The notes under the pieces are model-generated. The model did no database searches. It saw only the letters and a list, made by a program, of their open reading frames with translations, and was not told the origin of the DNA. The translations under genes were made by a program, and so were the position numbers. This document shows positions 4,611-42,800 of a stretch of DNA of 64,000 bases, piece by piece. The stretch's first letter is position 1. Every line of letters begins with the position of its first letter. The DNA comes from an uncultured Eubacterium sp. GTDB taxonomy: Bacteria > Bacillota > Clostridia > Lachnospirales > Lachnospiraceae. The stretch is taken from the NCBI GenBank assembly GCA_947384955.1, contig CANDJC010000005.1, positions 2,268 to 66,267 of the forward strand, given 5' to 3'.

Positions 4611-4633
4611 CAGATATAACGGAGGACAAATAT

Positions 4634-6682
4634 ATGGCAAAACAGAATAAAAAGAAAAAATACCGTCACTTCTGGTTATTTTTTAAAGTGCAGCTGGTAC
4701 TTTTTCTTCTGCTTGCCGCCGCGTTAGGGTATTACTATGGAGCCGGATATGCTCAGACGGTTGCACAGCTTAAGGAAGACGCAGATATGCTGGTAGCAAA
4801 ATCCACGACTGAGCTGTTTCGAAAAGGCGAAACAGGGCTGGTATATGATAAAAAAGGGAAGCTTTTAAAGGAGTATAAAGGGGAAAAGGATTCTTATTAT
4901 ATTGAAATTCAGGATATTCCGGAAATTGTTATGGAAACATTTATCACAGTTGAAGACCGTAAGTTTTATAAACATAAGGGGGTGGATTACCTCGCTATTC
5001 TGCGGGCGGTCATTGCCATGCTTAGAAACGGGGAAGTAACACAGGGGGGAAGCACGATTACCCAGCAGCTTTCCCGGACGGTTTTCCTGAGCATGGATAA
5101 GACATGGGAACGCAAGATGGAAGAGATTTTTATTGCGCAGAACATGGAAAGAAAATATACAAAGAACCAGATTATGGAATTTTATCTGAATAACATTTAT
5201 TTTGGAAACGGTTATTACGGAATTCAGGCTGCGGCTCAGGGATATTTCAGTAAAAATATTGATGAGCTGAATTTATCACAGACGGTTTTTTTGTGTGCGA
5301 TTCCCAACAATCCGTCGCTTTATGATCCGGTAAACCATAAAAAGAATACATTAGCCCGCCGGGACCGAATGCTTGACAGCATGGAGGAAGAGGGAGTTAT
5401 TTCACACAGGTCGGCAGAAGAAGCCAGGGAGCAGAAAATTAAGCTTAAAAGAAAAAAGGGAATCAAAAAGAATAACTATGTGGAGACATTTGTAAATTAT
5501 TGTGCAATCCGTGCACTGATGAAACAGCAGGGATTTGAATTTCAATACTATTTTGATTCAGAAAAAGAAGAAAAAAAATACAACAAACAGTACAAAAAAC
5601 TGTACCGGGAGTGTGAAGGAAGCCTGTATACTTCTGGCTACCGGATTTATACTTCCATTGATACCGGGCATCAGAAAAAACTTCAGGAAGCGATTGACGA
5701 AGGACTGAGTGCTTATCAGGATGTCAGCGAGGAAGGAATCTATAAGCTGCAGGGCGCCGGAGTTACGATTGACAATACAACGGGATATGTGACGGCAGCT
5801 GTCGGGGGACGCTCGCAGGATTATGAAGGATATACCCTGAACCGTGCATATCAGAGCTTCCGCCAGCCGGGAAGCGCGATAAAGCCGCTGCTGGTATTTA
5901 CGCCGGCACTGGAACGGGGGTATACGCCGGATTCTGTGGTGATGGATGAGCCGTTCGAAGGCGGGCCGTCCAATGCGGATGGTGTATTTGAAGGAGCAAT
6001 TACTCTGCGTCATGCGGTAAAAAGGTCCAAGAATACAATCGCATGGAAATTATTTGAAGAGCTGACCCCGGTGACGGGCTTAAACTATTTAAAAGCAATG
6101 AATTTTTCTAAAATTGACCCGGAGGATGAAAGACTGCCGCCGGCACTGGGAGGATTTACGGTAGGTGTATCCCCGTTAGAAATGGCATCCGGTTTTGCTG
6201 CACTGCAGAATGACGGATGCTACCGGGAACCGACCTGTATTATAAAAATAGAGGATACACAGGGAAATCTGATTTATACATCAGAGCCAAAAGAGGACAG
6301 AAGCCGCAAATCCAAAAAGGATGAGGCGGAAGGCATACGCATTTACAAATCGAATGCGGCAAGAATGATGACAGATATGCTTCAGACGGTAATGACAGAA
6401 GGCACAGCCAGAGGGCTTGACCTTGGAGATATGCCGTCAGCGGGAAAAACCGGTACGACAAATGATAACAAAGACGGCTGGTTTGCCGGTTATACGCGTT
6501 ACTATACGACCAGTATCTGGGTGGGCTACGACCAGCCGCAGCAGCTGCCGGGACTGACGGGCTCGGCTTTTCCGGGAAGCATCTGGCATAATTATATGAT
6601 GTCCGTCCACGAAAATCTGACGCCTATGGATTTTATACCGTATATCGAGCAGAAAGAGGTTGATATGGATTTTGTTCAGTAG
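4634..6682 (+). CDS. Class A penicillin-binding protein (transglycosylase + transpeptidase)
   Basis: TG motifs EDRKFYKHKGVD, GGSTITQQL, RKMEE; TP motifs SAIK, SKN, KTGT; N-terminal TM anchor; RBS GGAGG. Confidence 0.93.
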   Translation: MAKQNKKKKYRHFWLFFKVQLVLFLLLAAALGYYYGAGYAQTVAQLKEDADMLVAKSTTELFRKGETGLVYDKKGKLLKEYKGEKDSYYIEIQDIPEIVMETFITVEDRKFYKHKGVDYLAILRAVIAMLRNGEVTQGGSTITQQLSRTVFLSMDKTWERKMEEIFIAQNMERKYTKNQIMEFYLNNIYFGNGYYGIQAAAQGYFSKNIDELNLSQTVFLCAIPNNPSLYDPVNHKKNTLARRDRMLDSMEEEGVISHRSAEEAREQKIKLKRKKGIKKNNYVETFVNYCAIRALMKQQGFEFQYYFDSEKEEKKYNKQYKKLYRECEGSLYTSGYRIYTSIDTGHQKKLQEAIDEGLSAYQDVSEEGIYKLQGAGVTIDNTTGYVTAAVGGRSQDYEGYTLNRAYQSFRQPGSAIKPLLVFTPALERGYTPDSVVMDEPFEGGPSNADGVFEGAITLRHAVKRSKNTIAWKLFEELTPVTGLNYLKAMNFSKIDPEDERLPPALGGFTVGVSPLEMASGFAALQNDGCYREPTCIIKIEDTQGNLIYTSEPKEDRSRKSKKDEAEGIRIYKSNAARMMTDMLQTVMTEGTARGLDLGDMPSAGKTGTTNDNKDGWFAGYTRYYTTSIWVGYDQPQQLPGLTGSAFPGSIWHNYMMSVHENLTPMDFIPYIEQKEVDMDFVQ

Positions 6683-27031: not shown

Positions 27032-28450
27032 ATGGCACAGAAATACAAATTAGGCGAGCTTGAATTTGAAACGGAGCAGGAGTACCGGGATGCCGCCATG
27101 GATTTAAAAAGGATTAAGGGAATTGTGGATAAATATAATCCGGAAGACCCGCAGCAGGCTCAAAAAATCCTTGCTTCCATTAAAGCACACCCGGAAACGT
27201 TCCGTTCTCCTTACGGCGTAAAGTTCAGGGAAAAGCTAGAGGCGGCCGCAGCCCGGGGGACAGCCGGCAGCAGTAAAGCGCAGGGCAGCCGGACGGTACA
27301 AAAAAACACAGAGGAGAAAAAAGGCAGAAAATTTTCCCTAAAGCCTGTCAGAGAAACAAAGCAGGACGCCGGAACTGAGAAAGAAAAATTCCAGATATTT
27401 ACACCGAGAAATTTTGCCATCGGAGTAGTCATTGTCGCCTGTGTTGTTATTTTCAGCATATTTTCGCCGCGCCTGTTTTCCTTTAACAGCAGCGGGGACA
27501 GCAACGGAGATATCAGGCGCAATATGGTGACTGCTTATGCGAAGAGCCAGGCAGAGCTGAAAACGCAGCTGTATACGTATTATTTTAATGTGGTGGGGCA
27601 GACCGAGGAAGAGGCGCAGAAGGATGCCGAAGAAGGCATCGGCCATTATGTGATGGACCTCTCAGACCGGACTGTCAGTAAAATGTCAGATTCCGAAATT
27701 AAAGATATTTACAGCCAGCTGGTAGAAGGCGGAGACATTCAGAATAACAGCTTTGTCGAGCCTTCCGAGATAACGGTGTTAAAGGATAAGCTGTTAGCGG
27801 CAGGACTTTCCGGCAACAGCGGCAACGGCGTGGAAGGGGAAACTGCAGTCGTCGCTGCGGTCAATGATATGATGGATTATCAGGAGCGGCTGTTTTACTC
27901 GCTGTCTTACAATTATTCCCTGCTGAAATATCCGAAAGAACAGGCACAGGCTTATGCGGACGAGGATATGAAATCCATGTTCGGGGAAGTTATTTATAAT
28001 TACAGCATGGCTAAGGAAGATAAGCAGGGGTATTTTGACAGTTTTGTGAAAAGAGGGCTGATTAAGGACAATCAGGTAGTACGTTTTTCCGCAGACCCGA
28101 CAGCTTACAATCTGCCGGAGCTGACACCGGTTGTCGAAATCTCGCTGCAGGGCGGCGAATCAAAGGCATACCAGTGCAGCATGATCAGCTATGCGCCGGC
28201 GGCCAGCGTATTTTATGAGATACACAAAGGGAAGGAAAAAGGGTATCTGTGTTTTCGCAACAATGGGGGAAATACCGATTATATCCCGCTCGATGATGAT
28301 ACTTCGGTAACGGCCCAGGGTGATTTTTTTATGATTACAGGTTCGGAGCTGACGACGGGACAGTGGTTTTATAACAGACAGAATATCGGTATTTTGATGA
28401 ACGGGGATTCCAGCAGCATGATTAGTTATGTGCATGATTTGAGCTATTAA
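27032..28450 (+). CDS. Hypothetical single-pass membrane protein
   Basis: 7 bp after the EAL gene; TM NFAIGVVIVACVVIFSIFS; N-terminal 69 aa align without gaps to the SrtB N-terminus (see findings). Confidence 0.75.
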   Translation: MAQKYKLGELEFETEQEYRDAAMDLKRIKGIVDKYNPEDPQQAQKILASIKAHPETFRSPYGVKFREKLEAAAARGTAGSSKAQGSRTVQKNTEEKKGRKFSLKPVRETKQDAGTEKEKFQIFTPRNFAIGVVIVACVVIFSIFSPRLFSFNSSGDSNGDIRRNMVTAYAKSQAELKTQLYTYYFNVVGQTEEEAQKDAEEGIGHYVMDLSDRTVSKMSDSEIKDIYSQLVEGGDIQNNSFVEPSEITVLKDKLLAAGLSGNSGNGVEGETAVVAAVNDMMDYQERLFYSLSYNYSLLKYPKEQAQAYADEDMKSMFGEVIYNYSMAKEDKQGYFDSFVKRGLIKDNQVVRFSADPTAYNLPELTPVVEISLQGGESKAYQCSMISYAPAASVFYEIHKGKEKGYLCFRNNGGNTDYIPLDDDTSVTAQGDFFMITGSELTTGQWFYNRQNIGILMNGDSSSMISYVHDLSY

Positions 28451-28510
28451 GAAGACAGACGGTGTCTGGAAGGATGCCGGCGCTTTCATAAATGTGCGGT
28501 GATTTTAAAA

Positions 28511-28540
28511 GCGGCAGAATAGAAGCTTCTATTCTGCCGC
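28511..28540. repeat. Perfect 30-bp palindrome overlapping the thiT stop codon
   Basis: GCGGCAGAATAGAAG|CTTCTATTCTGCCGC. Confidence 0.8.
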
Positions 28541-29212
28541 AGTCTGTTTTACACGGAAAAATGACTGCTTTACCGGCTCAAGAGAAAGCAGCAGCACGGT
28601 AAGCATGGCTTCCGGCAGCAGATACATGCCGTTATATAATAAGGAAAAAACTGGTACAGACATGTGGTAGTCGGAGGCATACGCACCGAAGAAAATCATG
28701 CCGGACCAGAATGCAAAGAAGTATCTTCCAAGCACCCCGGCAATGTAACCGTACATCAGGCCGTTTTTCTTCTGGCTGAAAAAACCGGACAGGCCGAGCG
28801 CTCCGAATGCGAGCGGATAATCGATGATTACCTGCGGCAGTGTGTAAAAGATGGGTTCAAGGATGAACTGCAGCAGTCCGTAGGCAGCAGCCGCAGTAAG
28901 GCCTGTTCTGGGGCCGTACCAGTACCCGATGAGCGAGATAAAAAGCATGCTGAACAGGGTGATGGAGCCGCCCATTGGGAGGTTTAGGAATTTTATCATG
29001 GAGGTAACTGTTCCGAGAGCCATGGCGGCGGCTGAAAAGACGAGCTGCCGGGTGGTCAGGCGGGCGGTGCGTTCTTTTTGAGGGCGCAGTAAAAGGGATG
29101 CTGCCAGAAAGGCTGTAATTAATAGGACGACAGCTGCGATTCCGGCTGTGGTAAGGGTGACGGCATCCGGGCCCCAGGATGCCGGGGCTTGTTTTGTGAA
29201 TATATCGGTCAT
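28529..29212 (-). CDS. thiT: ECF-type thiamine transporter S component
   Basis: LPMGGSITLFSM, GYWYGPRTG, QVIIDYPLAF, FWSGMIFFG motifs; RBS AAGGAG. Confidence 0.88.
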   Translation of the reverse strand: MTDIFTKQAPASWGPDAVTLTTAGIAAVVLLITAFLAASLLLRPQKERTARLTTRQLVFSAAAMALGTVTSMIKFLNLPMGGSITLFSMLFISLIGYWYGPRTGLTAAAAYGLLQFILEPIFYTLPQVIIDYPLAFGALGLSGFFSQKKNGLMYGYIAGVLGRYFFAFWSGMIFFGAYASDYHMSVPVFSLLYNGMYLLPEAMLTVLLLSLEPVKQSFFRVKQTAAE

Positions 29213-29306
29213 GTGATACTCCTTTTGGTGGTTGTTTTTATGGTCGATAGCACTATAGCATATTTATGAGTGCAGTGCAAGGGGAGAAGAAGCTGCATGA
29301 GCATTT

Positions 29307-32300
29307 CTAATAGAAATTCCAGTCTGGAAAGTTTTTCTGCAGTTTTTTCTTCTGTTTTTTGGTCAGCATTTGTTTGTCATAGTTAAGCAGGAGATTTTGA
29401 CTGGTAAACTGGGATAGTTCTTTGTATAGTTCAGGTATGTGTGTTCCACAAATTGACAGCAGTTCTAAAGGCAGGTTTTTTAAATCTGAAACAGTGTCTG
29501 TTTGTGTATAGTTCAGGTATAAGTATTCCAGTCTGCTGCATGCGGAAAGGGGGCTCAGGTCTTTTGCGGGTGCAGAGTCCAGATTCAGTATTTCGAGTTC
29601 TTTCAGCGATGACAGGGCTGATAAATCGGATACATCTGATTTTGCGCAGGACAGGAATTTTAATCTGGTCAGGTTTTTGAGGTCTGATAAATCAGAAGAC
29701 TTTAAACCGTCCAGCGATAAATTTTCCAGATTTGTTATGGAATTTAATGCTTGTAAATCTGACAGCAAAATACAGTGATTCAGATTTAGTGTGTGCAGGT
29801 TTTTCATATTCTGTAATCCTTCCAGAGTCTGCAGCTGATCCATGTTATCTGCGCAGAGTGTGTGCAGGCTTAAACAGGAAGACAAGGCTGTCAGATCTCG
29901 GACCGAAGCCGTAGTAATATCTGCAATTCTTAAATCAGCAGCATTTGCAAGCCATTGTATGGATGGCAGACAGGCACCTTTTGCTGATATGTTTTTTAGG
30001 TTATTAAATCCTGAAGATTCAAAAAAGCAGTTTTGTGAAAAACTGCATTCGTCCAGATTCAGAAAAGACAGGTATTTCAGCTTTGAAAGCGGAGTAATGT
30101 CTTCAATAATCATATTGGACAGTGAAAGACTAGAGATGCCTGGCAGGGATGATAACATATCTAAGTTCAAGGGTTTTTCTTTCCCGCAGCTGTCAATGTG
30201 GAGTGAAATCAGAGAAGATGCATCCGAAAGGCCGGATATGTTATTGATTTGAACTCCGTCTATTGAAAAAGCAAGTAAACAGGGAAGGTTTTTAATAAAA
30301 TCCAGGTTTTTAAGGCTCGTACTAATCCTGGTGTTTTGTATGCTTAAAGCTTCCAGACTGACAAGGCTGTTCAAAAAATCGGCATTTAAAATTTTTGCAT
30401 TTAACAGGTATAGGTTTTTTAAATTGGACAGTTCCGCAATAGCCTGAAAATCTGCCGCTTCTATGTCTTTTAGTTCCAGTTCGGTCAGCCGTTTTAAATC
30501 AGCAAGAAAGTAAACATCCGATATGTTTGCAAGGGATGCTAGTTTTAAAGATGTTAGTTTTACGAGATTTTTTATGGTATCGTAGTTTTTGCAGGTTCCG
30601 ATATTAAGGTCTAATGTTTCTAAATATTTAAGCGGTTCCAGGAATTGTAAATCCAATTCTTTTTCGGAATTGCCTGAAAAGCTTTTAAATTTGTGAATGC
30701 GTAAGTTTTTTAAATCATACAGTCCCGAGAGAGGGGTATAGTCTAACTGTTCGTCTGATTTTATCTGCAGGTCAAGAGTCTCTAAAGGCAGAGATTTTAA
30801 AGGATTAAGACTGTGAATGCTAATGGGCTCGTCTCCAGAAATTGTTAGAGTTTCTAAATGAGTCAGAACCGAAAGCCTGTTCAAATCCAGGTTTGTTTTT
30901 TTTATGCAGCAGATATCCAGTTCCTTTAATCCAGCCAGGGATTCAAATGGCATATTTGCAGGAATGCTGCTGACTCCTAGCTTTTCCAGCTTTTTCAGGG
31001 CTTCCAGATTTTCCAGTCCGTACTGCATATTATAAATGAACAGATTTTTTAAATTCGGTAAGGAGTGCAGCTGGTTTAAGTTTACATCAGTATTTGAAAT
31101 GCTTAATGTTTCCAGGCTGGGAAAAGCTGTAAAATCAAACTGGCTGTTAAACGAATAATCGTCTGCAAAGAGTGATTTCAGCTGATTCATTTTAGGAAGC
31201 GACTGCCATACGGAATCATTACAGCTGCTAATATTTAGAGATTCCAGGTTTTTCAGCTGGCGAACAATGCTGATTTTTGATAAGTTCAGGCAGTTTTCCA
31301 GATTCAGGTTTTTTAGCTTCGGGAGGTTTGCTGCAAAATCGATATTGCTGATTTTTACTGCATATAAAATAAGTGATTCCAAATCTGTTAAATCGTTTAG
31401 CACAGAGAAATCACGGATAGAAGTATTTGAAGACAAGTCCAGGATACGCAGTTTTTTTAATACAGAAAGAGGCTGAATATCCTGTAAGTCGTCATTATAG
31501 CTTAAGTCTATATTAGTCAGGCCTGTCAGATATTTCAGGCCTGAGATATCACACAGTCTGTTTTTAGAAAGATTGACAGATTTAATGCCGGATAGGTCAT
31601 GCGGGTCGTATGCTGCGAAAAAATTCAGGTCTGTCAGCTCCAGGTCGGATAAATTCAGTTCCAGTATTCCCTGTTCATTTGTATACGGATTTAAAACCGG
31701 TGATTTTTGCTCAGGCAGTATGGCAGATGTATCATAGGATGCATCGGATACAGATAATTCAGGTGTAACCGAAGAAGTTACCGGAGTTTTTTTAGAGGCT
31801 GCAACGATAAAATACAGGATGCCGGATACTGCTAATGCGCTGATGACAGCGGTCTGGATGATTTTTCTGCGAAAAGGTTTCTGGTACAAATCGGTAAGAA
31901 GAGCGTCCATTGTCTGATACCGTTTCGAAGAACTGCGCTCAAGGCCCCGCATGAGTGCTTTCTGAATGGCAGGATTTATGCGTATGCCAAGTCTGGATGG
32001 CGTTATAAGTCCATTTGTTTTAGGAGACTGGCCGGTAATCAGCCGGTATATGGAAGCGCAGTAAGCATAAACATCTGTATAAGGGCCCTGTTCAGCACTT
32101 TGCAGCTGTTCTAGCGGAGAGTAATCCCGGTTACATATATCATTATTTTTATTATGATTATAAAATTCTCTGGAAGCTCCGAAATCAATCAGTACAGTCT
32201 GGAAAGTTTCCCCTGAAAGATTTATCATAATATTTTCAGGACTGATGTCACGGTGAAGGGTTTCATGGCGGTGAAGTCTGGCAATTGTCTGGCCTGCCGG

Positions 32301-32831
32301 GTACATCAGTTTTAGAGTTTCTTTCACTGACAGGCGACCATCTTTGCTTTGTGCATATTCATTCAGATTCTGCCCTTTAATAAAGTCCATGACCATATAT
32401 GCAGTATCATTTTCCATGAAATAGTCAGATACAGATACAATTCCGCTCAGATTAATTTCTCTGCTTAAATATGCAAGAGTTCGTGCTTCGTCATAAAAAT
32501 TATTTAGTATGTCCTGATAATCGCTTTTAACTGTATTTTCTAAAAGGCAGATCCGATTCCCGCTCGGCATGTCTGTATTACGGCAGATGAATTCTTTGGG
32601 AAAACATTCTTTGACTGCAGTTTTAATATCCAGACGGGTGTCATATCCGGTATAGGTAATTCCAAAACTTCCCTCGCCTATGGCGGGACCTATACAGTAG
32701 CGGTTTTTCAAAATGCTTTTGAGCGGAAGGTGATATGGCGGGACGGTGCCTGTGTTATTGAATAATGAACATAAATTTTTGCTGTTTTGCTGCTTTGGGC
32801 AGTTCTTACATAAACACATGAATATAGACAT
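29307..32831 (-). CDS. Transmembrane Ser/Thr (Hanks) kinase with a long C-terminal LRR ectodomain
   Basis: GEGSFGITY, AVKE, HRDISPEN, DFG intact; TM IIQTAVISALAVSGILYFIV; about 30 internalin-like LxxLxLxxN/C repeats; likely start ATG 32819. Confidence 0.9.
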   Translation of the reverse strand: MSIFMCLCKNCPKQQNSKNLCSLFNNTGTVPPYHLPLKSILKNRYCIGPAIGEGSFGITYTGYDTRLDIKTAVKECFPKEFICRNTDMPSGNRICLLENTVKSDYQDILNNFYDEARTLAYLSREINLSGIVSVSDYFMENDTAYMVMDFIKGQNLNEYAQSKDGRLSVKETLKLMYPAGQTIARLHRHETLHRDISPENIMINLSGETFQTVLIDFGASREFYNHNKNNDICNRDYSPLEQLQSAEQGPYTDVYAYCASIYRLITGQSPKTNGLITPSRLGIRINPAIQKALMRGLERSSSKRYQTMDALLTDLYQKPFRRKIIQTAVISALAVSGILYFIVAASKKTPVTSSVTPELSVSDASYDTSAILPEQKSPVLNPYTNEQGILELNLSDLELTDLNFFAAYDPHDLSGIKSVNLSKNRLCDISGLKYLTGLTNIDLSYNDDLQDIQPLSVLKKLRILDLSSNTSIRDFSVLNDLTDLESLILYAVKISNIDFAANLPKLKNLNLENCLNLSKISIVRQLKNLESLNISSCNDSVWQSLPKMNQLKSLFADDYSFNSQFDFTAFPSLETLSISNTDVNLNQLHSLPNLKNLFIYNMQYGLENLEALKKLEKLGVSSIPANMPFESLAGLKELDICCIKKTNLDLNRLSVLTHLETLTISGDEPISIHSLNPLKSLPLETLDLQIKSDEQLDYTPLSGLYDLKNLRIHKFKSFSGNSEKELDLQFLEPLKYLETLDLNIGTCKNYDTIKNLVKLTSLKLASLANISDVYFLADLKRLTELELKDIEAADFQAIAELSNLKNLYLLNAKILNADFLNSLVSLEALSIQNTRISTSLKNLDFIKNLPCLLAFSIDGVQINNISGLSDASSLISLHIDSCGKEKPLNLDMLSSLPGISSLSLSNMIIEDITPLSKLKYLSFLNLDECSFSQNCFFESSGFNNLKNISAKGACLPSIQWLANAADLRIADITTASVRDLTALSSCLSLHTLCADNMDQLQTLEGLQNMKNLHTLNLNHCILLSDLQALNSITNLENLSLDGLKSSDLSDLKNLTRLKFLSCAKSDVSDLSALSSLKELEILNLDSAPAKDLSPLSACSRLEYLYLNYTQTDTVSDLKNLPLELLSICGTHIPELYKELSQFTSQNLLLNYDKQMLTKKQKKKLQKNFPDWNFY

Positions 32832-32837
32832 CTCCTT

Positions 32838-35327
32838 TTAATATACTATATAGCAGTCGGGCAGCCATTTTTTCAGGTCTGCAATGTCCTTTTTTGTAAC
32901 ATTCGTATCAGAAAGGGTAACTGCAGAAAGGTTTGTTAAATCTTTCAGAATACGGATATCTGAAAAGGAAGTGTGAGCAAGTGAAAGGTATTTAAGCTGG
33001 GTTAAATTTTTTATAAAAGAAAAGTCGGAAGCCGGGATGCCTGGCAATAAAAGTGATGTTATTGATGTTTTATCCTGAAGCGGCGACAAATCTTTTATTT
33101 TTGTTTGCGAAAGATTCACTTCGCTTAGTTTATGACAGTCGGCGATGTCATAGATATCTGTAATTGGACAGTCCGATATTTTAAGGACTTTCAGGTTTTT
33201 GTTTGCAGCCAGACCTTTTAAACTGTGAAGCGGAGCATGAAATAATTCCAGTATAGAAAGATCTGAAGTTTCCAGTCCGGAGAGGTCTTTCAGCGACTGT
33301 GCATCGAAAATGGACAGGAGCATCAGGTTAGGCAGATCAGCAAGCGTGCTTAAATTGGTTATATTTTTGCCAGGCAGCTGTAATGCTTTGAGTGCTTTCA
33401 GATGGCTTAAATCTGACAAATCTTGAACAGGAAGATCAGGAAGAGTCAGATATTCCAGCTTATTCAGCTGCTGAATTGGAGTCAGGTTCGAAACAGCTGT
33501 ATTTTCGATATTCAGCACTGTTAACTGGGAAAGATTTTCTAATCCCGAAAGGCTTGTTAAATTTTTACATCCAGAAAGATACAGTTTTTCCATCTGATTC
33601 ATATGAGAAAAATCCTTGCAGTCCTGTAATGAGGCGGTGTGGTTTAGCCGCAGCATTCGCAGATTCAGTTCGCGCAGGAATTGGAAGCTGTCTGGGATAT
33701 TTTTAGAACCATCCAGGTACTGCAGAGCTGCCAGGCTGCTGATTGGAGAAAAATCTGAAATATTGTTTTCAGATATGTCCAGAACCTGTAAATTTGTCAT
33801 ATCTTTTAAAAAGGAAATATCAGACAGCTGGTTTGAACTGCAATTTAACTGCTTTAATGATGGAATTTTAGTTATTGGCAGTATTTTTTTAAAATAAGAA
33901 TCCTGATTCTGTTTTTTTTCTCTTGTATTGCTTAAATTCAGAATTTCGAGGGAAGCTGCAGACTGCAGCGGTTCATAGTTTAGAATATTCTGGCAGTCTG
34001 ATAAGTCTAGGATTTTTAGCTTTTTCATTAAACTCAGCTTCGATATATCTTCCAAATGGTCATTATTATAGAGATATAGTTTTTCTAGTGTCTCAGATAT
34101 AAATTCTATGCCGGTAAGGCTGTTTAGATAGCCGCGCTCTGTAAATGTACAGGATAAGTTCACTGCAGTGAGTCCCTTATATTCATCTTGTGAAAGAAAC
34201 CCAAGAGATGATCCGGGAATAGTAATACCGCATACGCCATAAGTTCCGCCAGAAGGAGTTTCACCATATTCTTCTGATTCAAAAAAATTCTGATTTAAAT
34301 CAATCAGGTCTTTTACAGCGGTGCTCTTAGTTGTGTTACTGGCTGTTTCGCTGCTTCCAGACTGCTCCGGGCCGTTGTCAGTCTGTGTGTAATTATCATC
34401 AGGCAGAATCTGCCCGGCATTATGCTGAACGGAGCTGCCGATAATAAACAGTAGCAAGACAGCACATACACTAGATAAAAAGATAACAATGCTGCGTATG
34501 GAAGTTTGCCTGATGATATTTTTATTATTTATGGCAGGTGATAATGGAGATGGTTCCCACATCTCTTCCATAAATTCAGACAAGCTGGACTGGCGTCTGT
34601 CTGGGTGCAGTGAGAGTGCTTTTTTTATTGCCCGCAGCTGTTTTTCAGAGACAAAAGGTTTTATATTATCTAAAAGCTTACAGCAGCCGGCTGTACGTTC
34701 GGATACAGGCATAGGATGGTTTCCAGTCATGCAGAAATAAATGAAAAGAGCCATTCTAAAAACATCCGTAGAAGCATTGATCTTATTTTGATTTAAGCCG
34801 CATTGTTCAGGAGCTTCATAAATACAGTTTTTAAAAGCGACAGTTTTTATATAAAATTTGGGACATCCTGAAATAATGCGGATGAATTTTATATCTCCCG
34901 TCGTTGTAATAAAAATTGACGATGGAACCAGGCGGGAAAAAAAGAAATTTTCATGCTGCATCTTTGCCAGAGTACGGCAAATGTTTTGCATAACGGGACA
35001 CAGCGTTTGCGTATCACATTTTCTATTAAAAAAGGAATCCTGTAAAGACATTCCTTCGGGGTATTCTTCGGCATAATAAAAGAATCCGTTTTCTTCAAAC
35101 AGGTCTGTAACCATGCTGATTTCAGGTATTTTTTTAGAAAGTTCCGAAGCTTGTTTTAAATATAAACGCCATATATGGGAAGATTCATACAGGCAGCACT
35201 GAATAAGCCGTACCCTGGTGCCGGTATGGGTGTCATATGTAATATATGAAAGTAAAGAATCTTCCTGGTTTTCCAGCTTTATCATGGTATATCTGTTCTG
35301 TAATTTTGTTTCCATAATGTTTATCAT
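32838..35327 (-). CDS. Transmembrane pseudokinase with a C-terminal LRR ectodomain
   Basis: Kinase-fold landmarks (LQNRY, YEAPEQ, STDVF, TGNHP, PDRR), but G-loop, VAIK, HRD and DFG are all lost; TM SIVIFLSSVCAVLLLFIIG; about 15-18 LRRs. Confidence 0.82.
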   Translation of the reverse strand: MINIMETKLQNRYTMIKLENQEDSLLSYITYDTHTGTRVRLIQCCLYESSHIWRLYLKQASELSKKIPEISMVTDLFEENGFFYYAEEYPEGMSLQDSFFNRKCDTQTLCPVMQNICRTLAKMQHENFFFSRLVPSSIFITTTGDIKFIRIISGCPKFYIKTVAFKNCIYEAPEQCGLNQNKINASTDVFRMALFIYFCMTGNHPMPVSERTAGCCKLLDNIKPFVSEKQLRAIKKALSLHPDRRQSSLSEFMEEMWEPSPLSPAINNKNIIRQTSIRSIVIFLSSVCAVLLLFIIGSSVQHNAGQILPDDNYTQTDNGPEQSGSSETASNTTKSTAVKDLIDLNQNFFESEEYGETPSGGTYGVCGITIPGSSLGFLSQDEYKGLTAVNLSCTFTERGYLNSLTGIEFISETLEKLYLYNNDHLEDISKLSLMKKLKILDLSDCQNILNYEPLQSAASLEILNLSNTREKKQNQDSYFKKILPITKIPSLKQLNCSSNQLSDISFLKDMTNLQVLDISENNISDFSPISSLAALQYLDGSKNIPDSFQFLRELNLRMLRLNHTASLQDCKDFSHMNQMEKLYLSGCKNLTSLSGLENLSQLTVLNIENTAVSNLTPIQQLNKLEYLTLPDLPVQDLSDLSHLKALKALQLPGKNITNLSTLADLPNLMLLSIFDAQSLKDLSGLETSDLSILELFHAPLHSLKGLAANKNLKVLKISDCPITDIYDIADCHKLSEVNLSQTKIKDLSPLQDKTSITSLLLPGIPASDFSFIKNLTQLKYLSLAHTSFSDIRILKDLTNLSAVTLSDTNVTKKDIADLKKWLPDCYIVY

Positions 35328-35331
35328 TTCC

Positions 35332-36639
35332 TTAAATGTATTTGTCAGCTGCTTTTTTACGGGGCATATGAAATATCAGGTTTTCGTTTGCGAGAGTGAT
35401 TGTGCAGCCGTCTTCCAGTTCGGTTCTTCCAGTTATTTCTATATCGTTGACATAGGTGCCGTTTGTGGAATTCAGGTCACAGAGAAAAGCTCTGATATTT
35501 TCAAAATCAATTGAAATGGAAGCATGTTTACTGCTAACCAGAACATTTCCTTCGACTGTGAAATCACAGTTATCGGAACTGCCGATAATAAACTCTTTTT
35601 TGCGAATACGAATTCGGGTCTGAGTTCGCTGCTGCAAGAGAGAAAAATGCTCCATTTTAACAGTGCTGCCGCTGCCTTTGCTGCCAGAAAAATTGTTCTT
35701 ATTTAGGTCATTCATATGAAAAGTATTTTGCTGGCTGAAAGAATCAGCTGCTGTTTTACTGATATCAGGGTTATCAGTGCTGGCTGGTGAAACGGTCAGC
35801 AGCTGAGACACATTAGATTCTGGCGTCTGGGCTGAAATCAGCGCATGGATATTCTGGAAAAACTCAGTCAGAATCTCATTGTAGTCTGATTTGTTTCCTG
35901 GCAGACTGATAACTGTTACATTTCGGTGTTTAAAATTAATAATCTCTTCCATGTCGGCATTTACCATGATACAGTAAGCACGCTTCTGTAATTCACTGAG
36001 ACGTGCATTCATGGTCTGCCAGATGCTTCGAATATCGTAGTCATCAAAGCTGTAGCCAATTAGAAGAGGCGTATGGGTGAGAAACATGCCAGATATATAT
36101 TCTGTAAGCAGACGCTTCTTATCTGTAAATGTGTCATAGTCATTTTCTGTAATGATTAGCTCTTCTGGGCGTTTAAAATCACCATGAAGTTTTATAAGTT
36201 TCACATATCCTTCTAAATCTACGGCTAGTTCCTGGTGAGAATAAATCGGAACTGACAGCCATCCGGATGCTTGCAGGGCATTTTCTAATAAAAAGTCAAA
36301 ATTGGTTGTAAAAATAATATCATGAAATACACTGCATAATGCAGTATGGGCGGATCCGGGTTTTATTCTGGCAGAACAGAGTAATTCTGAAAGCAGCTGG
36401 ACTAATTCCAGGCGGCCGTTTTCGGCTTCATATGCTGATAATGCCTGCAAGGCATTTTTATAAGAAAAGCCTTTTAACCGGGATGCAGCATAACGTCCAA
36501 GCTGTTCCCAGTCTGGCATAGTTATTTCAGGCGGCAGCAGTGCGTTTTTTGAAAATCCGGCGCCGATAATAGGAATCACTTTATGGCTGATAAGATTTTT
36601 TATGAGTCTGTCGGGCAGATAGGATAAGTATCTGGACAT
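35332..36639 (-). CDS. SIR2-like (SIR2_2) domain fused to a C-terminal FHA domain
   Basis: IIGAGFS, IFTTNFD, KLHGD, IGYSFDD (SIR2); IIG-S, VSSKHA, DLNSTNGTYVND (FHA); RBS AAGGAG before ATG 36639 (track start 36687). Confidence 0.88.
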   Translation of the reverse strand: MSRYLSYLPDRLIKNLISHKVIPIIGAGFSKNALLPPEITMPDWEQLGRYAASRLKGFSYKNALQALSAYEAENGRLELVQLLSELLCSARIKPGSAHTALCSVFHDIIFTTNFDFLLENALQASGWLSVPIYSHQELAVDLEGYVKLIKLHGDFKRPEELIITENDYDTFTDKKRLLTEYISGMFLTHTPLLIGYSFDDYDIRSIWQTMNARLSELQKRAYCIMVNADMEEIINFKHRNVTVISLPGNKSDYNEILTEFFQNIHALISAQTPESNVSQLLTVSPASTDNPDISKTAADSFSQQNTFHMNDLNKNNFSGSKGSGSTVKMEHFSLLQQRTQTRIRIRKKEFIIGSSDNCDFTVEGNVLVSSKHASISIDFENIRAFLCDLNSTNGTYVNDIEITGRTELEDGCTITLANENLIFHMPRKKAADKYI

Positions 36640-36706
36640 TGCATAAACTCCTTTCTGGGCAGGTTTGGTTAATAAATGCTTTTTCATATAAATAAAACCT
36701 GATTAC

Positions 36707-36735
36707 ATTTTATAAGTAATTGAGAGATTTGTAAA
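36707..36735 (-). promoter_or_regulatory. Sigma-A promoter of the SIR2-FHA/kinase operon
   Basis: On the minus strand TTTACA-17 nt-TAAAAT, about 70 nt upstream of the SIR2 start. Confidence 0.65.
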
Positions 36736-37160
36736 GTGGATGTTGATTTGGGATAAAAATAAAGTGCCAATTGGCTCGTTTGTTTGAACTGTAAGTTGAT
36801 AAACAGCTGTTTAGATAGTCCATTGAATTGCTGCAATTATAATTTTGCTGGTGTAATATTCATTTAAAATCGCTTCATGATGGGATTTTACACTCTTGAA
36901 TCACTTTCCTGTGTCTCGCACAGCAATTGTGCAGGACTATCTGAATAGTTACGTTAATAGTGACAGATTATCTGAAAATCAGTACAAATAGTGTTTACAC
37001 CGGCCGAAAACTATGGTATTTTATAGATATTAGAAATATAGTTTAAGTATTTATATTAATTAAGAGAAAAGGGAGGTTAGAAAAAGAATACTTACATAAT
37101 GAATGTGCTGATGAAAAGTCAGTTTAAAAGTTACTGCATAAGAAAAGGAGGATAAGATTT

Positions 37161-37292
37161 ATGGAGGAACTGGTACGTCAGGTTCTGCTGTTTGGATGGG
37201 ATATTTTGAAAATTGTACTGGCAGTAAAGGCAGCGTGGATTGCGTATATTATTTATGGAATTCATAAAGGATTTATTCATTATTCAGCGTAA
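37161..37292 (+). CDS. Small hydrophobic protein (43 aa)
   Basis: Below the track cutoff. AAGGAGG RBS; MEELVRQVLLFGWDILKIVLAVKAAWIAYIIYGIHKGFIHYSA*; one TM-length helix. Confidence 0.5.
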   Translation: MEELVRQVLLFGWDILKIVLAVKAAWIAYIIYGIHKGFIHYSA

Positions 37293-37634
37293 TTAAAAAA
37301 GAATGTCTGGTGTACTGGCTCCAGACATTCTTTTTTCTAGTTAGTGTGGCGGCAGTTTTGTTATTTTGTTACAAAATGCTGCCCCGGATGTATATTTTTG
37401 TTGTGTTCTGCATATGCGTATGTTATAATCCGTATAAAGCATATTTTCTTCATGCAGAGATTCCGTATCTTGCATGCCAGGGGGACATATCCCGTCAGAA
37501 AGACAATTCTTGCCGGCTGCCGTTCAGGCACGCTGCAGCCGAAATCACAGAAAATCCATGCTTTAAAATCATAAAAAAACAGGGCAGGGGTTTTCCGGGA
37601 GAAGGCCCCTGCGGCATACAGGAGGAAGACAGAA

Positions 37635-38951
37635 ATGAAAAATGAAACGGCAGAAAAGAGGGCCGTACAGGGGAATCCGGCAGGAGCGGGAGTGAATGCG
37701 GCATCGCATGCGGCATCTATAAGCAGCGCGGAGGAATACGGCAGGATTACCGGGCAGCGAAGGGCAGCGGACGGAGTGATGAAGGAGCTGCTGAAAAATG
37801 CCAGGTTTACAGGGGCGCTGCTGGCAGCCCTGCTCAGGGAGCTGGAAGGAGAGACGCTGGATGATTTCTGCAGGCACACGGGTGCCGATGTGCTTACGGG
37901 AAGCTCGCTGGGAGGCCTGGCCACGGAAGTCGGGAGCCTTTATACGAAGGACATCCGGCTGGACCTTGTGTTTGAGCATGCGGCGGCCGGGATGATGCTG
38001 AGGATAAACGAGGAGGCTCAGACGAAGCAGAAATCGTTTCAGGAAAGGAACCTGAAGTCCTATCCGCTGACCGCGCGGGCAGTCTATTATGCATCGCTTG
38101 CGGTGGCGACACAGCTTCAGGCAATAGACGAATACCATAAAATCAGGAAAGCATACAGCGTATGGCTCTGCTACGAGCGTCCGGTTCCAGACATGAGGGA
38201 GCCGGTCATCCGGTACAGCCTGCGGCCGGAAGAGGAGTATAAATATAAAGACGGCACGCCGCTGACAGAGTGCAGAAGGAAATATGACAGCGGGGACCTG
38301 ATGGGGATCGTGCTGGTATCCGTGCCGGACGTGGAGCGGGTGTATGGAGACAGCGCCCTTCTGCACAGCGGAAAATACAGTGAAGAAATGATAACGGAGC
38401 TGTATTATCTGCTTTCGGAAAAAACAGACAGCAGACAGAGAAAACAGTATTATTATGACCGCGGGATTATCAAGCGCGGAAGCGAGGAGGGAAACATGGT
38501 GTCAGCAATTGAGGAATTAAAACAGGCAGCGGAAAACGAGAGAAGAAACATGACGTCAGTAATGGAAGAATTAAAACAGGCAGCGGAAGACGAGAGAAGA
38601 AACATGACGTCGGCAATGGAAGAATTAAAACAGGCAGCGGAAAACGAGAGAAGAAGCATGACGTCGGCAATGGAGGAATTAAAACAATCAGCAGAAGACG
38701 AGAGAAAATGGAAAGAAACATTTAAGAGGAAAGCAGAAGAATCGGAAAGGAAGGCAGGGGAATCAGCAAGGAAACTGGAAGAATCCAAGAAAAAGGCATC
38801 AGAAGCAGAACGTGCAGTAGTGTCATTAACTGTGAATATGGGAAAATACAGCGGCCTGGACATACAGGGGCAGATATCCATGATAGCGGAACAGTTAAAG
38901 ATAGGGACAGAAGAAGCCGGGGAGCTGTACCGGGTATATTCCGGCTGCTGA
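37635..38951 (+). CDS. Rpn-like PD-(D/E)XK nuclease family protein with a repeat coiled-coil C-terminus
   Basis: IRLDLVF...RINEEAQ...ARAVYYAS...KIRKAYSVWLC follows the Rpn/'PD-(D/E)XK transposase' pattern; RBS GGAGG. Confidence 0.75.
   Translation: MKNETAEKRAVQGNPAGAGVNAASHAASISSAEEYGRITGQRRAADGVMKELLKNARFTGALLAALLRELEGETLDDFCRHTGADVLTGSSLGGLATEVGSLYTKDIRLDLVFEHAAAGMMLRINEEAQTKQKSFQERNLKSYPLTARAVYYASLAVATQLQAIDEYHKIRKAYSVWLCYERPVPDMREPVIRYSLRPEEEYKYKDGTPLTECRRKYDSGDLMGIVLVSVPDVERVYGDSALLHSGKYSEEMITELYYLLSEKTDSRQRKQYYYDRGIIKRGSEEGNMVSAIEELKQAAENERRNMTSVMEELKQAAEDERRNMTSAMEELKQAAENERRSMTSAMEELKQSAEDERKWKETFKRKAEESERKAGESARKLEESKKKASEAERAVVSLTVNMGKYSGLDIQGQISMIAEQLKIGTEEAGELYRVYSGC
38496..38711 (+). 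repeat. Four in-frame 54-bp tandem repeats (18 aa, M-x-S-x-x-EELKQ-x-AE-x-ER)
   Basis: Units begin with ATG at 38496, 38550, 38604, 38658. Confidence 0.9.
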
Positions 38952-39868
38952 TGCCAGGCTGGCGCGGCTGTATCAGAACATCTGTCTTAGAGTGCCAGGC
39001 ATTTATGACAGTGGCAGCCGGGGAGGAAGTTCAGGAAATCCGTGTTACGAAAAAAGGAAGTGCAGTCTGTGAATCTGCGTGCTGAATGGGTTTTCTGACG
39101 GGCTGTTATGATTTTAGCTTAAACTGCATGGACGGAAATATCCAGTGTTCCGGGCCGTGCAGTTTTGTTATTGAGAGAGTTTGCCGGAATATCATTTCAT
39201 TTTAATGTCCGGCGTTTAGAATATAAAGTGAGAGGTATTTGATTACAGGCAGTTTTCCTGGTTTTTAGGAAAGAATCAGCCAGTCAGCTTCTTTCGGGAA
39301 GGTTAAAAAAATCCAGGATTAAGGTTAATAATATAAAAAAACGAGCCGATATATTATTAAACTATCTAATGGGATAAGTCTGCCTGGCGGCCTGTTTTAG
39401 GTGAACCGGAAGGCATTTCCCTGAATATAGATAATAGTGTATGCTCTTCGGGTGAAAAGAACATACATGAATGCAGCAGCTGTGGATTTTGTATCAGAAT
39501 ACGGCCTGTTTAGCCTGGGGTGTCTGCTTTGCATGACAGGATGGGAATGTGTGCGGATACGGCTGGGGAACGCTGGCGGGTGTGTAACGGCGGCGGGATT
39601 TGAATTTATGGGACGGCTGATACAAGGGCTGGCAGGCTGCAGTGCCGGGACAGGAAGGAAATCAGATTTTCATATTGGTGTGGCACACCGCATTTGGCAT
39701 GACGCCTGTGTTTGATGAGACTGGCGGTCAATGCGGCTGCTTTAGCATGGGGCAGGTGTTTTGCGAACTGCGGTGCATGGAATGTGAGATGGTTTTCCGG
39801 TTCCCGGAGGTTAGGTAGTCTGGTGTGGAAAGAAGTCTGATGTGGGAAGACGGAGAGGAAGGGAATTT

Positions 39869-42800
39869 ATGTACAAGGATGTATGGAAGAAATTTGGTGC
39901 GAAAGTATTCATTGTATTGTGCTCCATACTGTTAGTGGGGGGAGTGGCGATTGCTGCGCCGAGGCTGCTTGCGGCTGATAGGGGGGTATCGCTGGAAAAT
40001 GTTATTTTTGTGGAAGCTGGCGGCAATGAACCTTCGATAACGTCTGGAGCGGCAATTATAACGCTAAATCAAGCTGATCAGTTTTATAGTTTGGATGAAA
40101 ATGGCGGAGTGATAGCTGCGATACCGTCTAGTTTGACGTTAAAGTATCTGAATGACAACGGTAAGGAAACAACAGAAACGATTTATGAGGGCAATGATTA
40201 TATTTTTGCTGATAATACGGAGGAAGATCAAGCAAAAAAAATAGCGCCTGATGGGGTAGATATAAAAATTAAAGCGGCAAGGGGGTCGAATTATTTAGTA
40301 GATGATGCTAAAACTTGTACAATTACGTATAACATTAAAAAGTCCTCTTTAAAGAAAATTGCAACGGATGCTATTCAAACGAATAATCCGGGATATCAGA
40401 ATATTACTAGGACGGTGTTGGTTTCAAATGGAAACGAGGCAATTACTCCGAAGAATATTAAGATTAACGTTACCTATGGCTCTAAAACTTTCTTTTTGCC
40501 GGAAAGTGAGTATGATATATATGAGGCTCAGGGCAGTTCGGGTTCTTATACAGAAACGAATAATCTGAATCCGGTTCCGAATAAGTTAGGACGATATGCA
40601 GTATATATTAAATATAAAAATTTTTATCTTGGAAATAATGAAAATGTTGTTTCAGAATCTTTTGAATTTGATATAAAAAAGGATGCTTCTAATTTTACGA
40701 TTCAGGCATGGGCTGATGATAAGGGTACGCAAGAGTATATCCCAACGAATGTTTCTGTTAACCCGATGAAGGTGCAAGTGTTTGATGGAACAACGGATGT
40801 AAGTGCATTCTTTGATTTTAGTTATCCGTATGAAACAAAGGGAGATGGAACAACTGTTAAACAAGTGGTAGCAAAACCTAAGGAAACATCTAATTACATC
40901 GGAGATGTAATAAAAAGCTGGACAGTTTCAGAAAAACCATTAGATGTAAAGTTTAGGAATGGACGTCCAGATGGAACCTTGGATGTAATGGATTATGATA
41001 ATGCGGTGGATGGATATAAAGGGGTGCAGACTTACGAGATTCAGAAACAGCCGCTGACGGTCAGAGTAGGAGGAACTGACTATGCTCTGGATATTAACCG
41101 ATATGAGATTATTGGTTATACAGTTGTAAAAAGCGAGAGGGATAACACCCCTATTCCAGGCGGAACAGCCGGAATTATTATGATGGAAATACAAACGGAT
41201 TCTACGTATAACCCGGCTCCAAATACGACAGGATATTTATATTATGGAATCCGGCGAAATATTGCGAATGCAAGGTTTAAAGATAATGAGGGTGATGAAG
41301 ATGCGAACCAAATCAAATATAATGGAAATACGCATTATAGAACACCTTATATATATTTTAATGATGCTCCAGATAATGTAGAATATAAATTGGTGAAAGA
41401 TACGGACTATACTTTAACTTATTCATTGAAAAAACGCGGAGATGGTTCTGTGGTGACAGGCAGCGGAAAGGATGTTGTTACTGATGCAGGAACTGTTTCT
41501 ATGACAGTTACAGGCAAAGCTGGTACAGGTGAACCGGGTTCAAGGACAGATTTGCCGGGATATTATGGTACTTTGACGGGGGAGAGTTATCCAGATGCAT
41601 TGACATATACTATTCAGGCAAAGAGCATTAGTGAATACGATATGTCATATAATGATGTTACTTATCAGCTGGAAGATACGCCGCCAAATGTTGCTACAGC
41701 TGAGACGAATGTTTATTTTAAACCAAAGGACGAGAATCTTAGGACCATTTACCTAGCGCATATGACTCCTATAAAGGATTATTCAATAGATTATTATTTC
41801 AAACAGGCGTGCGCGGAAAGTGATTATATTGAAAATTGGCAGCAATCTGTCGAAGACGGAGATATTGAAGCTGGAGGGACATATTATGCTAAAATTACAT
41901 TTACTGGGAATCAGAAAGATTTTGTTGTAATACCATTAAAGATGGTTGCGTATGAACTTACCAATGTTAAAATCGATGTCAAAGACTGGTGTAATCAAGA
42001 AGGCGAGACTGATGGAAAGCATATATATAATGGAAAACAGCATTCATTGAATGTTGTAGTAACAGTGAAAGATGATCCGTCGAGACCGCCACTGGTGCAG
42101 GGTGACAGACCAGGAAGGGGAGATTACTGGCTGGAATATGATGCTGCTTCTGACAGAGTGAATGTTTCGGGTCAAGACCAGAACGTGTTAGTAACAATTA
42201 AATTTAAAAGCGGTGCAGAAACAACTAGAAAGTTTAAAATACATCCTCGGCAGGTTGAAACTGGAAAGGTTAAAATTACTGCGACAGGATTCCAGAATAC
42301 TTCAAGCGGCACTACGCATTTATTTAATGGCATAGGAGACGATAAAGTTCCGGCGCTGGATAAACTGGAACTTTCTTATCAGAAAGCAGGTGGTTCAACA
42401 GAAACATTAACAATGTATGAGAAGGCTGGAGTACAGATAGAAGATGGTACACTTTCGAATGATGATTATGATGTTTTGCCAGGGCTTTATGATGCAAACG
42501 GAAACAAGGTAAATCTGAATTCAATCAGTATGGATGCATCTTATTACTATGCAATTGAGCCGAAGGGGAATTTTGAAGGTAAATTTATCAGTGGGGATAA
42601 GAAGTATGTACTAGCTGGACCATTTAAATTTATCAAAAAGGACTTAGGTGCAAAAGAAATTACCTATAGAGACAAATCAACAAAGGGTGATCTTGTTATG
42701 ACCCGATGGAAATTTGATACTGAGGCTGAATATAGGCAAAAGGTAGAAGAATGGCTTAATTCGCATCTTGAAGTATGGGATGAGGATTTAAAGCAGGCAG

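Follow-up and report, generated by a model that had tools for sequence, protein, structure and literature searches.

Two kinds of described system come closest to the three-gene operon analyzed here: the SIR2 NADase effectors of bacterial defense and kinase-FHA signaling. The operon lies in a 64,000-nucleotide stretch of DNA from an uncultured Eubacterium sp. (CANDJC010000005.1), the whole of which is referred to below as the window; coordinates are window positions unless another locus is named. Its components are of these two known kinds, but as a whole it joins no known system, including Thoeris, DSR2, and the PpkA pathway. Among the NAD-depleting effectors, Thoeris ThsA binds glycocyclic ADP-ribose (gcADPR) through its C-terminal SLOG/STALD domain, and DSR2 binds the phage tail tube protein through a long C-terminal sensor; to our knowledge, the sensors of the known SIR2, TIR, and other NAD-depleting bacterial immune effectors are all intracellular. 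The FHA-ABC transporter Rv1747 is an example of an FHA-regulated effector. In plants, leucine-rich repeat (LRR) receptors are paired and combine an extracellular sensor with an intracellular kinase and with co-receptors. PpkA is a T6SS (type VI secretion system) kinase that works with an FHA protein (PMC3953482), and PpkA-Fha1(-PppA) forms the pathway of threonine phosphorylation in type VI secretion (PMC3953482, PMC6082577). In the KKP (kinase-kinase-phosphatase) prophage module, the two kinases, one of them FHA bearing, are jointly toxic or defensive (PMC11341870).

The operon encodes a SIR2-FHA protein (gene 1), a predicted pseudokinase with a transmembrane helix and an LRR ectodomain (gene 2), and a predicted kinase of the same layout (gene 3). 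Our favored reading, which we hold at about even chances, is that these genes constitute a self-contained accessory signaling-effector module of gut Lachnospiraceae-type Clostridia, in which a SIR2 enzyme is gated by receptors via the kinase and the FHA domain. Judged by its domains, the module would probably convert a surface-sensed signal into NAD+ depletion. It is rare, being found in four lineages, and apparently undescribed. The features of the operon are the following.

36707 to 36735, minus strand: promoter-like site TTTACA-17-TAAAAT, the top consensus match in the region (10/12).
35332 to 36687, minus strand: SIR2-FHA gene (gene 1), an open reading frame (ORF) of 451 amino acids (aa) with Met17 as the probable start; cytoplasmic product, no transmembrane helix predicted.
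35818 to 36639, minus strand: SIR2 domain, aa 17 to 290, with GAGFS, TTNFD (Asn129), and KLHG (His168); identified by Pfam, PADLOC, PDB, and Foldseek.
35623 to 35817, minus strand: disordered Ser/Thr-rich linker, approximately aa 291 to 355, with low AlphaFold2 confidence; candidate phospho-acceptor region.
35353 to 35622, minus strand: FHA domain, aa 356 to 445, noncanonical (G-S for G-R); identified by Pfam FHA and structure alignments.
32838 to 35327, minus strand: putative pseudokinase-transmembrane-LRR co-receptor (whole gene 2; 829 aa).
34509 to 35327, minus strand: gene 2 kinase-like part, aa 1 to 273.
34422 to 34508, minus strand: gene 2 transmembrane helix, aa 274 to 302.
32841 to 34421, minus strand: gene 2 LRR ectodomain, aa 303 to 829.
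29307 to 32831, minus strand: putative PpkA-like Ser/Thr kinase-transmembrane-LRR receptor (whole gene 3; 1174 aa).
31863 to 32831, minus strand: gene 3 kinase, aa 1 to 323.
31791 to 31862, minus strand: gene 3 transmembrane helix, aa 324 to 347.
29310 to 31790, minus strand: gene 3 LRR ectodomain, aa 348 to 1174.

An initial annotation of this DNA had described three co-oriented genes lying 4 and 6 bp apart, and the ends of the three minus-strand ORFs are exact. These gaps refer to the ORF boundaries; gene callers place the starts of genes 2 and 3 at codon 5, so that the gaps become 16 and 18 bp. Gene 1 probably starts at the ATG at 36639 (Met17), which has AAAGGAG upstream. The sigma-A promoter that the annotation assigned to the operon holds as the best regional match to the consensus, but promoter-like sites are no more common near the operon than in shuffled sequence (20 observed versus 23.9 +/- 5.0).

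The gene 1 product was identified in Pfam as a SIR2_2 domain (E value, 1.1e-23; aa 124 to 260) joined to an FHA domain (1.7e-14; aa 367 to 432). The four motifs that had been read as an intact SIR2 core, GAGFS, TTNFD, KLHG, and GYS, are all present and are invariant in the aligned relatives. In PADLOC (2023), which together with NCBIfam, both applied with their family cut-offs, served as the catalogue for our comparisons, the SIR2 domain matched ThsA1 (1.5e-27; model positions 12 to 231) and Dsr2 (1.2e-20), the matches being confined to the SIR2 parts of the models; the NCBIfam Dsr2 match, also in the SIR2 part only, reached 66.5 bits against a cut-off of 1400. The nearest solved structures by sequence are SeThsA (7uxt), KomC, ThsA (6lhx), and DSR2. 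The AlphaFold2 model of the protein has a pLDDT (predicted local distance difference test) score of >90 in the SIR2 domain, <50 over an 84-residue linker, and 72 to 89 in the FHA beta-sandwich. Foldseek placed DSR2, BcThsA (3.7e-14), and KomC at the top for the SIR2 domain (E value, ~1e-14), with TM-scores of 0.7 to 0.8 on SIR2-only chains. By its motifs and predicted fold, the domain is of the ThsA/DSR2 defense NADase type with an apparently intact active site, in agreement with the annotation, and SIR2-FHA would be expected to hydrolyze NAD+.

The SIR2_2 fold and the catalytic Asn and His are common to the module and to the defense effectors ThsA, DSR2, KomC, Avs5, and SIR2-pAgo. The module, however, has no SLOG domain, ThsB, DSR2 arm, STAND domain, or Argonaute, and an FHA domain and membrane LRR kinases stand as its regulator. 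The match to the ThsA model stops at position 231 of 478, and an FHA domain takes the place of C-terminal SLOG/STALD. No ThsB TIR gene is adjacent, the neighbors being the two kinase-LRR genes, ThiT, a 43-aa ORF, and an Rpn-like gene. DSR2 is a protein of ~1000 aa, whereas the 451-aa gene 1 product has no DSR2-type sensor arm. The PDB titles of the ThsA and KomC entries refer to helical assemblies, and Avs5 is activated by filamentation (PMC11897194). By analogy, activation by assembly is plausibly common to the SIR2 effectors and the module.

The nearest SIR2-only relatives (P0006 to P0122) belong to hundreds of stand-alone proteins of ~535 aa that are 45 to 50% identical to the SIR2 domain and have a tail with an HEPN-like R-N-x-L-V-H motif (weak HepT/DUF4145 matches). 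One such gene, in L011 (8001 to 9599), lies beside genes for a serine recombinase and a CI-like repressor. On sequence grounds, these proteins probably form an uncharacterized single-gene SIR2 defense family.

The FHA fold of gene 1 matched PF00498 with 54.4 bits against a cut-off of 20.7. Alignment to the FHA structures of CHFR and Rv0020c indicated that the pocket retains S-x-x-H and S-T-N-G and that the Arg of the G-R motif is replaced by Ser.

Genes 2 and 3 had been described as a kinase fold, one transmembrane helix, and an external LRR array each, and this layout was recovered. In each protein, a single hydrophobic helix separates the N-terminal kinase part from the LRR part and a signal peptide is lacking, which places the kinase parts in the cytoplasm and the LRRs outside the cell. 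In gene 2, the Pkinase score lies only just above the cut-off of 31.7 bits (32.6 bits; 7e-8), and LRR_4 is matched as well (5e-33); the gene is paralogous to gene 3 over its full length. Its kinase-like part models as a bilobal Hanks fold (AlphaFold2 pLDDT, 84; best match PknB, 1.8e-14). Neither of the two known orthologues retains the G-loop, the beta3 Lys, the HRD Asp, or DFG, which points to gene 2 being a conserved pseudokinase, as the annotation had it. In its "activation loop" (KTVAF/RTLDL), Thr162 is invariant.

Gene 3 matched Pkinase (PF00069) with an E value of 2.9e-26 (92.9 bits against a cut-off of 31.7), as well as several LRR models. The kinase residues GEGSFG, AVKE (Lys74), E115 (the alphaC Glu), HRD (Asp195), and DFG are present, and the closest solved relative is PpkA (5hnv; 1.1e-30). 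The catalytic-loop Lys is Ser in gene 3 (HRDISPEN). We considered HRDIS as a mark of an inactive kinase and rejected it, because the same motif is shared by the active PpkA and many members of the kinase family, and the kinase of G317, a second species of the genus, has HRDIK. Gene 3 is predicted to encode an active PpkA-like Ser/Thr kinase.

In the PpkA-Fha pathway, as is proposed for the module, a single-pass membrane Hanks kinase with an outside sensor domain acts on a cytoplasmic FHA protein controlling an effector. In contrast to that pathway, the module is found in a Gram-positive-type Clostridium, its ectodomain is LRR instead of vWA, it has a pseudokinase co-receptor, and its FHA domain is fused to SIR2 and is without the canonical Arg. 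The third partner of PpkA-Fha-PppA is also missing, as there is no PP2C gene in the insertion that carries the module, and PP2C genes are found elsewhere in the genome. T6SS-like genes were not seen among the window neighbors (TIGR03354 TagH, 27.6 bits against a cut-off of 120).

The likeness to other systems is at the level of domains. Plant LRR receptor kinases share the paired LRR receptors, but the polypeptide orientation is opposite, the module having an N-terminal kinase and C-terminal LRRs. The KKP module is cytoplasmic, with the kinases themselves serving as the effector. The match to PD-T4-6 and to the MAD6 kinase of MADS is confined to the kinase domain (NCBIfam MAD6, 79 bits against a cut-off of 460). 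The ectodomains are internalin-like, but in class 1 internalins only the LRR repeats match (InlA model, 130.8 bits against a cut-off of 1600), and the N terminus of the module proteins is a cytoplasmic kinase, in place of the internalin layout of signal peptide, LRR, IR, and anchor. Overall, the PADLOC (2023) and NCBIfam matches were domain level only and below the family cut-offs, and a literature search including full text, for SIR2-FHA, TIR-FHA, and related combinations, found no description, which agrees with the earlier statement that the combination is not a named defense system.

Evidence that the genes belong together comes from other lineages. G317 (L009 is from the same organism) has the genes in the window order, with a 442-aa SIR2-FHA protein, a 902-aa pseudokinase-transmembrane-LRR protein, and a 1286-aa kinase-transmembrane-LRR protein that are 41%, 39%, and 38% identical, respectively, to those of the window, and its module has different flanks, an AraC/GyrI-like gene and a Fic gene. 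In L213/L214, SIR2, FHA, a transmembrane helix, and LRRs are found in one 787-aa protein (P0133), followed by a 1291-aa kinase-transmembrane-LRR protein that is 33% identical to gene 3 over 1172 residues. The P0133 ectodomain is 36 to 38% identical to the pseudokinase ectodomain versus ~25% to the kinase ectodomain, and it closes with the same KKDI...LPDC.IV motif as the ectodomain of the pseudokinase gene. SIR2-FHA here fills the N-terminal place held by the pseudokinase domain in the window and G317. No other observation speaks as strongly as this fusion for SIR2-FHA working at the LRR-A receptor, i.e., the receptor of the gene 2 type. The co-occurrence in G317 and the fused form next to a kinase-LRR gene in L213 bear out the earlier proposal of a three-gene unit, and that the three genes form one functional module appears well supported. 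The linker of SIR2-FHA is 18% identical between the window and G317 and measures ~20 to 28 aa in L007, the form without kinases, and in L213, the fused form.

Two neighbors of the module in these lineages matched PADLOC models: the Fic protein of G317 (L038, 12674 to 13429) matched SoFic/PDC-S04 (2.7e-32), and the Uma2 protein in L213 (6987 to 7538) matched PDC-S03 (2.5e-46). These matches hint weakly at a defense neighborhood. Two repeat features were observed in L038. The G317 pseudokinase (3159 to 5867) has an acidic tandem-repeat stalk, QADQIDAQADQVESQADDIGAQADQVENQADYVEKQAD, at approximately aa 320 to 400 after the transmembrane helix, which is absent from the window orthologue, and upstream of the module (760 to 1090) there are three copies of a short repeat encoding CQCPK[RQ]AYYIST-like peptides.

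The SIR2-FHA combination is rare. A profile search of 1.84 billion cluster representatives gave four proteins covering both domains (P0001, P0004, P0005, and P0133), and a word-indexed search gave two SIR2-FHA proteins besides that of the window (P0004 and P0005), its other ~300 matches being ~535-aa SIR2 proteins with a different tail. Only G317 had SIR2-FHA among 22 genomes of the genus, and no other was found among one genome each of 300 genera of the family. In a metagenome scan, none of the best 80 of 340 SIR2 relatives covered the FHA domain. A word-indexed homologue search with the pseudokinase domain returned the query itself only, a search of species genomes for loci with P0001 as the single query sequence returned nothing but SIR2-only relatives, and P0133 was not found in species genomes. 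The viral contigs contained a single SIR2-only match, giving no sign of a phage-borne module. A kinase, FHA, or LRR neighbor was found in none of 86 loci of SIR2-only relatives, suggesting that the association is specific to the FHA fusion. Within the window lineage, 17 contigs have an identical SIR2-FHA gene; among the eight of these listed, the operon is intact in seven and the eighth is too short to judge. Seven contigs from ENA/Logan samples (L215 to L221) have no nucleotide differences from the window over 29307 to 36687 (7.4 kb; 5.2 kb in L221), and the strain carrying the module appears to be clonal across samples.

Gut and rumen Clostridia have a very large kinase family (>546 loci), with the motifs K[TV]AVKECF and FEEN[DG]TAY and often an N-terminal zinc ribbon and HRDIS, to which the cytoplasmic domain of gene 3 belongs. 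In the 80 nearest kinase loci (L039 to L118), on which the following counts are based, co-oriented kinase genes number at least two in 50 loci and at least three in 19, forming tandem arrays of two to four. An FHA gene is present in 32 loci, on the same strand in 31, and a PP2C gene in 47, whereas kinases with LRR ectodomains were found in only 4. Eight loci contain a weak-scoring kinase ORF, and these ORFs, some of them short fragments, may be pseudokinases. The domain X in the X-FHA partners is mostly vWA, and trypsin-like peptidase, RDD, PrsW, FtsK/EssC, zinc ribbon, DUF6382, and TIR domains also occur, as does an FHA-FHA-ABC ATPase partner. An ordinary FHA, PP2C, and kinase cluster is present in the window genome itself (contig C3). 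Kinase array, PP2C, and X-FHA together look like a general receptor-to-effector design for which we found no description.

The vWA-FHA clusters with PP2C and multiple kinases share with the module the kinase family, the co-oriented kinases, and the X-FHA gene upstream on the same strand; in the module, in contrast, X is SIR2, PP2C is missing, and the ectodomain is LRR, which is rare in the family. Closer still is L095 (1897 to 11000), which contains an ABC exporter, a 113-aa peptide with a GG-type leader-like motif (ELVAGG), STAS, TIR-FHA, PP2C, and a membrane kinase. As in the module, a gene for an NADase-type domain joined to FHA lies just upstream of the genes leading to a membrane kinase of the same family: the 261-aa TIR-FHA is followed by PP2C and then by the 1027-aa kinase, which has HRDISPDN. 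L095 differs in its TIR effector, canonical FHA domain, and non-LRR ectodomain and in the presence of PP2C, STAS, the exporter, and the peptide. From its domain content, we consider L095 to be the TIR counterpart of the SIR2-FHA module, and the window module is predicted to be a rare variant of the common kinase-FHA design, with a defense-type NADase as the output and an LRR pair as the sensor.

The module was evidently gained as a block, which is the following feature.

29293 to 37388, no strand: 8.1-kb accessory insertion comprising the whole module and its upstream region; delimited by blastn against G306 and by the GC profile.

The GC content is 0.39 at 30 to 36 kb versus ~0.46 in the flanks. 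In G306 (L119), the closest relative in the genus, the flanking DNA is 76 to 89% identical to the window (blastn); the homology covers 27041 to 29292 and picks up again at 37389, with just 100 bp between in G306. The gene order there is p472, ThiT, the 100 bp, the Rpn-like gene, and the fn3 giant, and the window has the 8.1 kb in place of these 100 bp. There is no recombinase gene in the insertion. The content after ThiT varies across the genus, and the region was not recognizable as a defense hotspot, core genes (Pth and Mfd) being located there in several species.

How the parts might work together can be proposed from these comparisons. A ligand would bind the pair formed by LRR-A and LRR-B, activating the kinase against the pseudokinase scaffold. 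Threonine phosphorylation would follow, with Thr162 of the pseudokinase and Thr residues of the SIR2-FHA linker as candidate sites. Phosphorylation would alter FHA docking so that SIR2 clusters at the receptor and is activated by assembly, as are ThsA, KomC, and Avs5, and the NAD+ hydrolysis switched on in this way would lower NAD+ and lead to growth arrest or cell death. As for the biological role, phage defense and a response to a competitor or peptide signal are both tentative suggestions, and a host or surface cue and any other role are each rather unlikely. We are also doubtful of the more specific idea of an "outside-in" immune receptor, in which the LRR pair would detect a phage, a competitor weapon, or another danger signal at the surface, ahead of any entry into the cytoplasm, and SIR2, triggered through threonine phosphorylation and FHA docking, would bring about suicide or dormancy.

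Several observations weigh against receptor gating via kinase and FHA, and they are considered here with the alternatives. The Arg that contacts phosphothreonine is replaced in all three unfused SIR2-FHA proteins, by Ser in the window, Ala in G317, and Ser in L007. It is retained in the fused P0133, and nearly all of a comparison set of at least 30 kinase-linked FHA domains keep G-R. The loss of the canonical Arg in the unfused forms suggests that FHA docking may be phospho-independent. In addition, Thr is absent from the activation loop of the kinase in both the window and G317, and the window operon has no PP2C gene. Together, the missing Arg, the lack of an activation-loop Thr, and the lack of a phosphatase gene would also allow the FHA domain to be a permanent, phospho-independent anchor. 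In this alternative, the degenerate FHA domain would sit permanently on the pseudokinase as a noncovalent stand-in for the fusion, SIR2 would be set by the conformation or clustering of the receptor, and the kinase would serve to adjust the receptor or other targets; the interchangeability of the pseudokinase domain and SIR2-FHA at the N terminus of the LRR-A receptor also fits it. Such a constitutive scaffold is nevertheless unlikely in our view: an active kinase gene is kept in all three receptor-bearing lineages, the FHA pocket keeps its Ser, His, and Asn, and the partner FHA domains of the kinase family are otherwise canonical. The habitual pairing of the kinase family with FHA proteins is in line with the earlier interpretation; the claim that the FHA domain reads phosphothreonine is weakened by the three replacements, the Arg being kept in the fused form only. 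We consider a phospho-FHA relay plausible but weakened, and of the proposed receptor-kinase-gated NADase it is the coupling of receptor, kinase, and SIR2 that appears well supported.

Other observations concern the output and the signal. Conservation is 46% for the pseudokinase ectodomain, 39% for the kinase ectodomain, 45% for the kinase domain, and 36% for the pseudokinase cytoplasmic domain. The LRR ectodomains are thus no more diverged than the catalytic domains and are not hypervariable, suggesting a conserved ligand or LRR-A/LRR-B pairing instead of an arms race with phages. The immediate neighbors in the window are adhesin, sortase, and ThiT genes, none of them known defense genes, and the nearest analogue, the TIR-FHA, PP2C, and kinase genes of L095, is in a peptide-export locus and not in a defense island. 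These points would suit nonlethal signaling, in which a host, matrix, or peptide cue is sensed and SIR2 acts as a deacylase, an ADP-ribosyltransferase, or a mild NAD+ regulator in surface or competition physiology, as would the internalin-like character of the ectodomains, the giant fn3 adhesin and sortase adjoining the insertion, and the mostly nontoxic X-FHA partners (vWA, RDD, and ABC). We think this improbable, since the close relatives of the SIR2 domain in sequence and structure are all defense NAD+ hydrolases with no deacetylases among them, its nearest homologues are the stand-alone 535-aa proteins with HEPN-like tails found by recombinase and repressor genes, and the adhesin neighborhood does not recur in G317 or L213.

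The comparative evidence is thin, with four lineages only, and L007/L008 carry SIR2-FHA alone (385 aa, with the short linker) at a site syntenic with the window, between a 474-aa gene and the fn3 giant, where the flanks are 62 to 72% identical to the window and SIR2-FHA is only ~40% identical. That SIR2-FHA is an independent single-gene defense protein and the LRR kinases are unrelated surface signaling genes, which this solitary form and the single-gene nature of most SIR2 relatives might suggest, is nonetheless very improbable, given the gene order conserved at ~40% identity in another context, the gaps of 4 to 18 bp, the joint insertion of the three genes, the habitual linkage of FHA genes to the kinase family, and above all the L213 fusion of SIR2-FHA to the LRR-A receptor, which largely refutes it.

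Of the remaining genes around the operon, one small ORF lies inside the insertion.

37161 to 37292, plus strand: 43-aa hydrophobic ORF, MEELVRQVLLFGWDILKIVLAVKAAWIAYIIYGIHKGFIHYSA, with a ribosome-binding site and a terminator-like hairpin; divergent from the operon.

This ORF was called in every sampled contig. As a fourth component it is unsupported, because nothing corresponding to it lies upstream of the operon in G317, and its membership of the module is doubtful. On the other side, the gene for the thiamine transporter ThiT (Thia_YuaJ; 28529 to 29306) has a 94-bp leader with a promoter-like TTGCAC-17-TATAGT. Rfam detected no riboswitch or other RNA across 28000 to 39900, including no thiamine pyrophosphate (TPP) riboswitch in this leader, and ThiT, which has a promoter-like site of its own, is apparently an independent unit. 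The Rpn-like gene adjoining the insertion (37635 to 38951, plus strand; weak PDDEXK_2 match) encodes 438 aa in the window and in L216 (6737 to 8053) and 402 aa in L215 (6845 to 8053), the shortfall being two 18-aa repeat units; the copy number of its repeat array may vary between samples. A type II C5-methyltransferase gene is located 13 kb from the module.

The module ties an NAD-depleting type of effector to outward-facing receptors, and in one lineage this tie is a gene fusion; it also brings together LRRs, FHA, and a kinase paired with a pseudokinase, all of which are eukaryote-like. If the coupling works in the proposed way, bacteria are able to control NAD+ depletion from their surface, and the module would offer a tractable three-protein system for studying bacterial pseudokinase co-receptors and FHA-controlled enzyme assembly. 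The common clusters of X-FHA, PP2C, and kinase arrays would then be readable as receptor-to-effector modules with exchangeable outputs. Should the "outside-in" reading be true, the module would be the first NADase defense system to sense outside the cell and would give plant LRR receptor kinases and Toll-like receptors a counterpart among prokaryotes. Even if its role is not defense, it would still represent a new output class for bacterial Ser/Thr kinase signaling.

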